Counted from the first letter of the stretch, positions 45,453-46,398 are shown. The stretch is 64,000 nt of DNA from Candidatus Heimdallarchaeum endolithica (GCA_021513715.1 CP084167.1:608001-672000), one strand, 5' to 3'. The notes: generated by a model from the sequence alone, not told the origin. Made by a program: numbers and translations.

Positions 45453-46398
45453 TTACACTTTATCTGTTTTGTCTTTAGTTTCCCATGATTCAAATTCTTG
45501 GCTTAATCTTTCTAAAGCTTCATCTATCTTTTCACTACTCTTTTGACCAAACATGATGTAATCTCCATCAACTACAATTTCATACTCGTCAGGAAGAATA
45601 TATATCCACTCCAAACAATCAACTTTCTTTGTGAACCCTAGTAATGGAGATAAATTGTCTATCGTTATTTTCTCTGTTCGTTTCATCACTCTTTTCAGTT
45701 TTTGCAACCTTTTTTGCTCCGTCATTTGTTCTTGTTCTCTAAATGCTTTCTTAACTTGTGAATCAGCGTCTCCAATTTTTTGTTCTTGTTCTATTTCAGT
45801 TTCAGGTTCTAAATTTAGTTTCTTAACATGAGAATCAATTTCAACATCCAATTGACCCTTTTCCATGAGTTCTTTTAATGGAGTTAAATCTACTCTCTGC
45901 AATTGATTGTTGGACAGATACAACCATCATAGTTTTGGACATTTTTCCAAAGGAGTCAAATCAACTGTCTGTAGTTGATTATCCCACAAATACAACCATC
46001 GTAGTTCTGGACATTTTTCCAAAGGAGTCAAATCAACTGTCTGTAGTTGATTACCCCCTAAATACAGCCATCGTAGTTTTAGACATTTTTCCAAGGGGGT
46101 CAAATCAACTGTCTGTAATTGATTATCCCCCAAACCCAAGCATCGTAGTTTTAGACATTTTTCCAAAGGGGTCAAATCTACTGTCTGTAGTTGATTATCC
46201 CACAAATACAACTCTGTTAGTTCTGGACATTTTTCCAAGGGGGTTAAATCAACTGTCTGTAATTGATTACCCCCCAAATACAACTCTGTTAGTTCTGGAC
46301 ATTTTTCCAAGGGGGTTAAATCAACTGTCTGTAACTGATTTTCCCATAAAAACAACCATCTTAGATTTGAATCTATTTTTTTTCAAACTTTTCTCCAT
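45453..46398 (-). pseudogene. Leucine-rich-repeat protein with PCI-like C-terminal module, interrupted
   Basis: Seven 22-aa (66-bp) LRR units. TGA at 45927-45929 stands where sister repeats have CGA. The ATG at 46398 is one base out of frame across an A8 tract. C-terminus ITIDNLSPLLGF..CLEWI..VDGDYIMF..IDEALERLSQEFESWE. Confidence 0.8.

Follow-up and report, generated by a model that had tools for sequence, protein, structure and literature searches.

A probable recent pseudogene for a leucine-rich repeat protein with a PCI-like tail in Candidatus Heimdallarchaeum endolithica

The minus-strand gene at positions 45453-46429 of the window is best explained as the remnant of a soluble, adaptor-like leucine-rich repeat (LRR) protein with a PCI-type docking tail, which has recently become a pseudogene. 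A probability of about 60% is given to this reading. The window is the whole stretch of 64,000 nucleotides analysed here, taken from the genome of Candidatus Heimdallarchaeum endolithica (3.33 Mb, single contig, 31% GC). The point of interest is the shared tail, a single PCI-like handle that surface receptors have in common with soluble LRR, WD40 and TPR proteins; the question that it raises is what this handle binds. The locus itself is of less weight, as a decayed copy that gives evidence for rapid birth-and-death in the LRR branch. Archaea of the Heimdall group belong to the closest known relatives of eukaryotes. The proteostasis machines of eukaryotes have as hallmarks both scaffolds of the PCI type and exchangeable adaptors that combine a recognition part with a docking domain.

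Gene layout and repeat array

The extent of the gene was established from the sequence and from an alignment with its paralogues (Table 1). The first-pass annotation had let the gene end at 46398, but N-cap homology with the paralogues places the actual N-terminus at the ATG at 46429. The alternative ATG at 46398 (MEKSLKK) was rejected as a start, as it belongs to an irrelevant third frame; the LRR frame itself contains two stops just 5' of this region. In the alignment, the N-cap MKQYIVGKLVNGEKFEKK is homologous to the paralogue N-cap MKIQIRGKKDNGKTFIKEIDT, and the database LRR-tail proteins conserve the same N-cap as the paralogues.

The whole LRR protein would comprise about 325 aa, and its read-through version is modelled by AF2 with a pLDDT of 87 as an LRR solenoid followed by a winged-helix tail. 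The layout proposed for the family consists of a short beta-hairpin N-cap, 24-residue LRRs, a C-cap, a charged linker and a predicted PCI-type winged helix of about 80 residues with a terminal helix. The succession of N-cap, LRRs and tail is conserved in the intact 624-aa paralogue and in database proteins. The C-cap and linker region is modelled partly with low confidence (pLDDT <50 at residues 193-204) and partly as a long helix (196-235). A protein devoid of signal peptide and transmembrane segment had been described at first pass, and the hydrophobicity check, which covered the C-terminal ORF (by hydropathy scan) and the N-terminus only, agrees with this description: the former contains no hydrophobic segment and the latter is not hydrophobic.

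Table 1. Coordinates of the LRR gene, of the receptor tails in the window and of related genes in this and other genomes. Rows marked "genome" give positions in the genome named; all others are positions in the window.
Feature	Position	Strand	Evidence or remark
N-cap coding segment	46376..46429	-	ATG 46429, MKQYIVGKLVNGEKFEKK; 1 nt off the LRR frame
A8 homopolymer	46376..46383	-	junction of N-cap frame and LRR frame
Seven tandem 72-bp (24-aa) LRRs	45861..46364	-	TRF, codon register, Pfam LRR_8, AF2 solenoid
In-frame TGA, position 2 of repeat 7	45927..45929	-	CGA (Arg) in repeats 4-6
C-cap (…LKELMEKGQLDVEID…) and charged linker	45714..45860	-	C-cap common to paralogues
Tail domain: predicted PCI-type winged helix, then terminal amphipathic helix	45456..45713	-	HMM family, alignment, AF2
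Stop codon of the LRR gene	45453..45455	-	
Tail on 1126-aa beta-helix receptor	6965..7222	+	BLASTP, HMM
Tail on 852-aa receptor, 'type B' clade	7265..7528	-	BLASTP, HMM, tree
Tail on 1061-aa receptor	10077..10334	-	BLASTP, HMM
Tail on 1155-aa receptor	13492..13749	-	BLASTP, HMM
Tail on 863-aa receptor	20331..20588	+	BLASTP, HMM
Tail on receptor 20766-23837, 'type B' clade	20769..21038	-	BLASTP, HMM, tree
Tail on 1063-aa receptor	25564..25821	-	BLASTP, HMM
Tail on 1065-aa receptor, 'type B' clade	28971..29240	-	BLASTP, HMM, tree
LRR paralogue	genome G000 (this genome) 309690-311396		two in-frame stops in linker
LRR paralogue	genome G000 793990-795168		several frameshifts and stops
LRR paralogue	genome G000 1900028-1901278		tail degraded to fragments in other frames
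LRR paralogue	genome G000 312338-314209		624 aa, the sole intact one; N-cap/LRR/tail layout
Coiled-coil-tail gene, 3 nt, LRR-tail gene	genome G000 481040-482632 and 789008-790876		paralogous units (L014, L011); coiled-coil-tail genes at 481040-481828 and 789947-790876
Coiled-coil-tail/LRR-tail pairs	genome G001 (sister genome) 412864-413931 and 692438-693637		same arrangement
Tail gene near UFC1-like gene	genomes G002 C33, G006 C7, G024 C14, G076 C36, G156 C301, G201 C6		

The near-invariant scaffold that had been noticed in the repeats (NQLQTVDLTPLEKC) is indeed present in the minus-strand array. The period is not the 66 bp first given, since both TRF and the codon register return 72 bp, or 24 aa. 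TRF detects 6.7 copies at 45886-46369, and seven 24-residue LRRs can be placed in register, the first at 46364. Repeats 1-6 share 82-93% DNA identity, and repeat 7 has diverged and runs into the C-cap. The Pfam model LRR_8 scores 102 bits, its cut-off being 27, with an E value of 1.5e-29; for LRR_4 the E value is 1.7e-24. In the AF2 model the repeats reach a pLDDT of 94-98, with one strand per 24 residues at repeat positions 3-5. The gene therefore codes for an LRR protein both by a motif score above the curated threshold and by a curved solenoid with one strand per repeat.

The beta-strand variants listed at first pass are all present, including the one in which a stop codon precedes WLYLSN, and the variation is concentrated rather than even. 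In repeats 1-6, the amino acid changes only at positions 2, 3, 5, 7 and 8 of LxxLxLxxN and at positions 23 and 24, so that 5/5 face codons are variable in amino acid against 2/19 of the others (Fisher p = 5e-4). Codon-pair differences amount to 48 nonsynonymous and 3 synonymous on the face, compared with 17 and 57 elsewhere. As eight scaffold codons differ by synonymous changes only, the array was under selection before it was broken. According to these codon counts, the scaffold was kept by purifying selection while the binding face of the array diversified.

This is the usual LRR pattern in a sharp form, observed over only seven repeats with a small residue alphabet. Among 72 repeats taken from six paralogues, positions 10, 12, 13, 17, 20 and 21 vary too, and the array of the window is therefore unusually clean. 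The idea of a hypervariable concave face thus stands as far as the focus of the variation is concerned; as a special property of this gene it does not, the pattern being ordinary for LRRs and alike in the paralogues. Of the 30 residues on the face, 11 are aromatic (6 W, 4 Y and 1 F; 37%) and 6 are Gly, compared with 3-20% aromatic residues in the six paralogues. This richness in Trp, Tyr and Gly hints at a glycan, a proline-rich or a cation-pi ligand. A DGR-type mutagenesis was considered and rejected: the substitutions in the face codons involve all four bases (AGA/ACA/CGA, TGG/GAG/TGC, TTT/TAT/GGT) and show no adenine bias. Such a mechanism is not indicated, because the substitutions are not adenine-specific.

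A C-terminal tail shared with surface receptors

The last 80 residues or so of the protein match the tails of all eight beta-helix/TSP3 membrane proteins of the window by BLASTP (E 1e-8 to 4e-4), and these receptor tails are recovered by the genome HMM with E values of 6e-17 to 5e-29. The resemblance with receptor tails, proposed by the first-pass annotation, is therefore significant in a profile comparison. According to Pfam, the receptors are large beta-helix (NosD) or TSP3 proteins, with a single membrane pass. The receptor at 20766-23837 measures 1023 aa from a TTG start, and its open frame extends to 24260. An iterated HMM search detected 26 tail copies in the genome, each at the extreme C-terminus of its carrier: 13 membrane receptors, 6 LRR proteins or fragments, 5 coiled-coil proteins, 1 WD40 protein and 1 small protein with a double winged helix. 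With this HMM family in hand, the view that one C-terminal module is carried both by extracellular beta-helix receptors and by soluble LRR proteins holds.

The more specific assignment of the tail to the 'type B' receptors does not survive the maximum-likelihood tree. The tail of the window gene is grouped there with three other LRR tails (support 99/95), and a clade of their own (99/99) unites the three receptor tails of 'type B'. The idea that the gene had lately acquired its tail from a 'type B' receptor was rejected on this ground. As the LRR and 'type B' tails form separate clades, the module is shared anciently and was not swapped recently.

The family is not restricted to this genome. 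Tails were matched in 50/201 Asgard genomes, with 26 copies here, 13 in the sister species and 1-9 in the others; the family is thus Asgard-wide and expanded in Ca. H. endolithica. An exhaustive profile search through 1.84 billion proteins returned 410 cluster representatives, in which the tail is nearly always C-terminal. Among database members, the fusion partners detected by Pfam across the family are LRRs (14), zinc ribbons (9), TPR (7), HEAT (4) and beta-helix/TSP3 domains, and the tail is also joined to multi-pass membrane proteins. Most members conserve the motif [FW]-E-x4-G-K-[KIVLM] at the extreme C-terminus. No curated model and no paper were found for this archaeal family, and the literature returned no paper on LRR-PCI fusions or on the tail in Heimdallarchaeum.

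Two side observations concern the borders of the family. Three giant proteins of this genome (558501-562643, 457765-462141 and 450485-455320; 1381-1612 aa) possess the terminal helix and an ending of the type ...WE..GEGKKK; the whole-tail HMM missed them, and the family may therefore exceed 26 copies. In addition, a single-copy Asgard family of proteins of about 385-440 aa, named f10 (22/48 genomes, e.g. G121 C9 83808-83996), matches only the winged-helix part of the tail profile (positions 2-58), at the extreme C-terminus. The f10 protein may be a more canonical PCI protein, and possibly an ancestor or a partner of the tail family.

Four modest lines of evidence agree in predicting a winged helix of the PCI type for the tail, with a terminal helix after it. 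Its AF2 topology is H-E-H-H-E-E-H. PCI is the commonest Pfam hit among full-length database members (32/118 at E <= 0.01, best 1.4e-7), and PF01399 is hit at E <= 1 by 10/24 genomic tail copies (best 5e-4); the window tail itself gives no Pfam hit at E <= 0.01 or at E <= 1. Searched against PDB sequences, the tail profile has the PCI protein Rpn12 as its top hit (E 0.27). Foldseek, queried with the AF2 tail, retrieves nearly exclusively subunits of the CSN, the proteasome lid and eIF3 (E ~0.02, probability 0.96-1.0). In VIA, which is independent of Foldseek, the best matches are Rpn12 and CSN3 (Z 7.6; rmsd of 1.3-1.7 over 54-59 residues), ahead of DDRGK1, TREX-2, CSN7 and eIF3. These structural scores are modest (Foldseek E ~0.02, Z <8), and the similarity they suggest is at the level of the fold.

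The same winged helix with a C-terminal helix is found in the PCI subunits (PF01399) of the proteasome lid, the COP9 signalosome, eIF3 and TREX-2, as exemplified by Rpn12 (4b0z), CSN3 (4d18) and CSN7 (3chm). The likeness extends to those other tail members, 7 and 4 respectively, that carry TPR or HEAT repeats ahead of the winged helix. In the window gene, however, the N-terminal helical-repeat (TPR-like) half of PCI proteins is absent, its place before the winged helix being taken by LRRs and a charged linker. Since the window tail also lies below the Pfam thresholds, it is called PCI-like and not a member of the PCI family. Other points of difference from PCI subunits are the position of the winged helix, which here comes after LRRs or after a transmembrane receptor and not after a helical-repeat half, the lack of any known lid-like multi-subunit complex, and the C-terminal motif given above, in which most of the tails end.

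Makarova et al. 2024 (PMC10936438) describe archaeal membrane Ser/Thr kinases that end in PCI-like wH domains, as well as ESCRT-linked proteins of Asgard archaea that contain HTH/PCI domains. To judge by their description, those wH domains resemble the present tail in being archaeal, C-terminal, membrane-tethered and PCI-like, and oligomerisation was proposed for them. They are combined with other partners (kinase, adaptin-like), and LRRs are mentioned 0 times in that paper.

Winged helices are also common in nucleic-acid-binding proteins, many of which, of the MarR, IscR and BirA DNA-binding types, appear at Z 5.3-6.7 in a wide structure search. The first helix of the tail is moreover basic (KRLQKLKRVMKRTEK), as would suit proteins that regulate transcription or RNA, whether tethered to the membrane or soluble. 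Such a function can hardly be credited: PCI subunits top every search, the helix that would serve for recognition is hydrophobic and acidic (LEWIYIL), and the domain ends long membrane-anchored tails.

Two lesions and decay in the LRR subfamily

The gene is interrupted twice, since the N-cap lies 1 nt off the frame of the repeats and repeat 7 contains a TGA. The N-cap frame meets a TAG right past the A8 run. A 1-nt frameshift in this run and a nonsense mutation, CGA>TGA, would have inactivated the gene. Most likely, the window copy has turned into a pseudogene only recently, as a member of a family that evolves by birth and death, and its lesions are probably biological rather than artefactual.

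The state of the closest relatives bears on this conclusion. Within the LRR subfamily 4/5 genes are decayed, the window copy included, and 3/4 of the closest paralogues are broken (Table 1). With two lesions of its own and decayed relatives around it, the window copy is probably not alive. The sister paralogues were independently broken outside homopolymers, and decay is therefore the norm in this family. No orthologue was found in the sister species Ca. Heimdallarchaeum aukensis, where the best match has 25% identity. A word-index search of public proteins of 169-541 aa detected no close intact copy (best 43% over 80%). A public fragment of 108 aa (P0032) is 66% identical in the tail, and a metagenome scan for its source contig found nothing. 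As a separate observation, the paralogue with a fragmented tail at 1900028-1901278 contains about eight near-identical 24-aa repeats (NQLENIDLSPLEKCTKLT.L.LS.), which differ at the same face positions.

Could the gene be intact in the organism and both interruptions be artefacts of assembly or polishing, one in a homopolymer and the other in a tandem repeat? The genome was assembled from Nanopore reads with Canu and then corrected with Illumina data (PMC8813620). One extra A exactly restores the spacing of the paralogues, an A9 run or a -1 slip yielding ...FEKKIDSNLRWLFLWEN. The strong pattern of purifying and diversifying change implies that any loss is very recent, and a TATA-like AAATTTAAAAAA can be read about 25-35 nt upstream of the ATG at 46429. 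Against this explanation, a C>T substitution is an atypical Nanopore error, and the sister paralogues show several independent stops and frameshifts outside homopolymers. Moreover, A8 runs across the genome coincide with frame-switch junctions in 12/1399 cases (0.9%), for 40/5000 random sites (0.8%). In view of this lack of excess, homopolymer error is not pervasive in the assembly, and the notion of an assembly riddled with such errors was rejected. A local A8/A9 miscall, or a mis-polished base within the 72-bp repeats, is possible; that the gene as a whole is intact is considered unlikely.

The lesions might also be regulatory, if -1 slippage of the ribosome or of transcription on A_AAA_AAA, or a phase-variable A tract, were combined with read-through of the TGA. 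The two frames do join exactly on a classical slippery A run, with a 0-frame TAG directly after it, and archaeal -1 frameshifting on A-rich heptamers is known from fucA1 of Sulfolobus. However, a second and unrelated nonsense codon would also have to be bypassed, and the TGA replaces an Arg of the sister repeats, which is not a context for Sec or Trp. A8 runs are common in a genome of 31% GC (n=1399), and no conserved orthologue was found to show that the arrangement is maintained. Regulation by these means is accordingly judged very improbable, and recent pseudogenisation is preferred.

Proposed docking and recognition, and the genomic neighbourhood

PCI subunits of the lid, the CSN and eIF3 dock through their winged helices and C-terminal helices. 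Because the tail is predicted to be a PCI-type winged helix with an end helix, a docking rather than an enzymatic output is suggested. In the mechanism proposed, a ligand would be bound by the concave face of the LRRs, and the tail would dock the protein, in the manner of PCI subunits, onto other tail-bearing proteins or onto one common partner. The candidates are the surface receptors of the window, the coiled-coil partners and a UFM1-type conjugation machinery. The tail-gene pairs in which a coiled-coil-tail gene adjoins an LRR-tail gene, found twice in this genome and twice in the sister genome, lend indirect support, from gene order, to tail proteins acting together.

The UFM1-type link was approached by co-occurrence, using as query the UFC1-like protein of the genome itself; the Pfam UFC1 model is too insensitive for this use and misses the genome's own gene. 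A homologue of the UFC1-like gene is present in 17 genomes, of which 15 possess the tail, compared with 35/184 of the genomes devoid of it; in 22 of those 35, the hits are partial ones to the winged helix only, in one family. In 6/15 genomes, the distance between a tail gene and the gene of the UFC1-like protein (UFM1-type E2) is 1.7-10 kb. This proximity is a lead and not a proof, because related genomes are not independent. In the genome under study, the UFM1-type operon is located at 531.5-536.3 kb, and the nearest tail gene is 28 kb off. The operon includes the UFC1-like gene, at 533830-534411, and codes for a winged-helix protein of 344 aa. The end helix was also considered as a mimic of the UBA5 C-terminal tail, an idea rejected when its profile ranked no UBA5 C-terminal match.

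Two known systems offer points of comparison. In the DDRGK1/UFL1 scaffold of the UFM1 E3 ligase (8c0d), DDRGK1 is membrane-anchored and combines a charged helix with a PCI-like winged helix, which superimposes on the tail with Z 6.6 and an rmsd of 2.1 over 58 residues. This match is structural and does not amount to sequence homology, and the operon is here at least 28 kb from the tail genes. The F-box/LRR (FBXL) receptors of SCF follow the same logic, with variable LRRs, a small constant docking domain and a large family of fast turnover. Their docking domain is unrelated to the tail and the analogy is functional only; indeed, Pfam gives no F-box hit in the LRR gene. The tail might serve as a common handle that plugs LRR, WD40, TPR/HEAT and receptor ectodomains into a UFM1-type machinery or another hub, a suggestion that is tentative and rather unlikely as it stands. 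If it were true, the LRR-tail proteins would correspond, in archaea, to eukaryotic families of substrate receptors, the F-box/LRR proteins for instance, and the receptors of the window would be wired to the same hub.

The first-pass annotation had seen in the tail an output module, within a design resembling that of immune receptors. An intracellular sensor of the innate-immune type would detect foreign molecules through a hypervariable LRR face and signal via the tail that it shares with surface receptors. The focus of the variation on the binding face fits such a sensor, as do the rapid turnover, pseudogenisation and lineage-specific expansion of the family and the position of the gene within an island where surface-protein genes recombine and IS elements occur. 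Yet ordinary LRR proteins show the same face pattern, and nothing points to a source of diversification, somatic or targeted, as the changes are not adenine-specific. The tail is predicted to be a docking fold devoid of enzymatic or signalling domain, the copy is broken, and no defence genes were seen among the scanned neighbours. Pfam finds LRR families only in the gene, with no NTPase (NACHT/NB-ARC), TIR, nuclease or other effector domain.

Variation on the concave face of the LRRs is the only feature shared with VLRs and NLRs. The gene lacks the NACHT/NB-ARC NTPase and the effector domain of NLRs, and, unlike VLRs, it has no apparent signal peptide, no GPI or stalk and no cassette-based assembly. 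Its caps are of the family's own type and are not LRRNT/LRRCT, and a search for repeats across the window brought up no donor cassettes apart from the array. The evidence does not support an immune function, and an immune-type sensor is regarded as improbable; the reading retained is that of a decayed adaptor with a docking tail.

Several features of the surroundings can be added. The LRR gene is flanked by genes for beta-helix/TSP3 surface proteins at 43709-45148, 46749-48182 and 48605-51700, the first two of which, those adjacent to it, end just past a hydrophobic C-terminal segment. The PCI-like tail is absent from all three, and it is the eight receptors at 3.8-32 kb that have it. An IS-type transposase gene (rve integrase core and HTH, 24420-25208) lies within the array of receptor genes. 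Finally, a MacB/FtsX-type ABC exporter pair (40417-43495), composed of a permease of 798 aa and an ATPase of 225 aa, is encoded directly downstream of the surface-protein genes.
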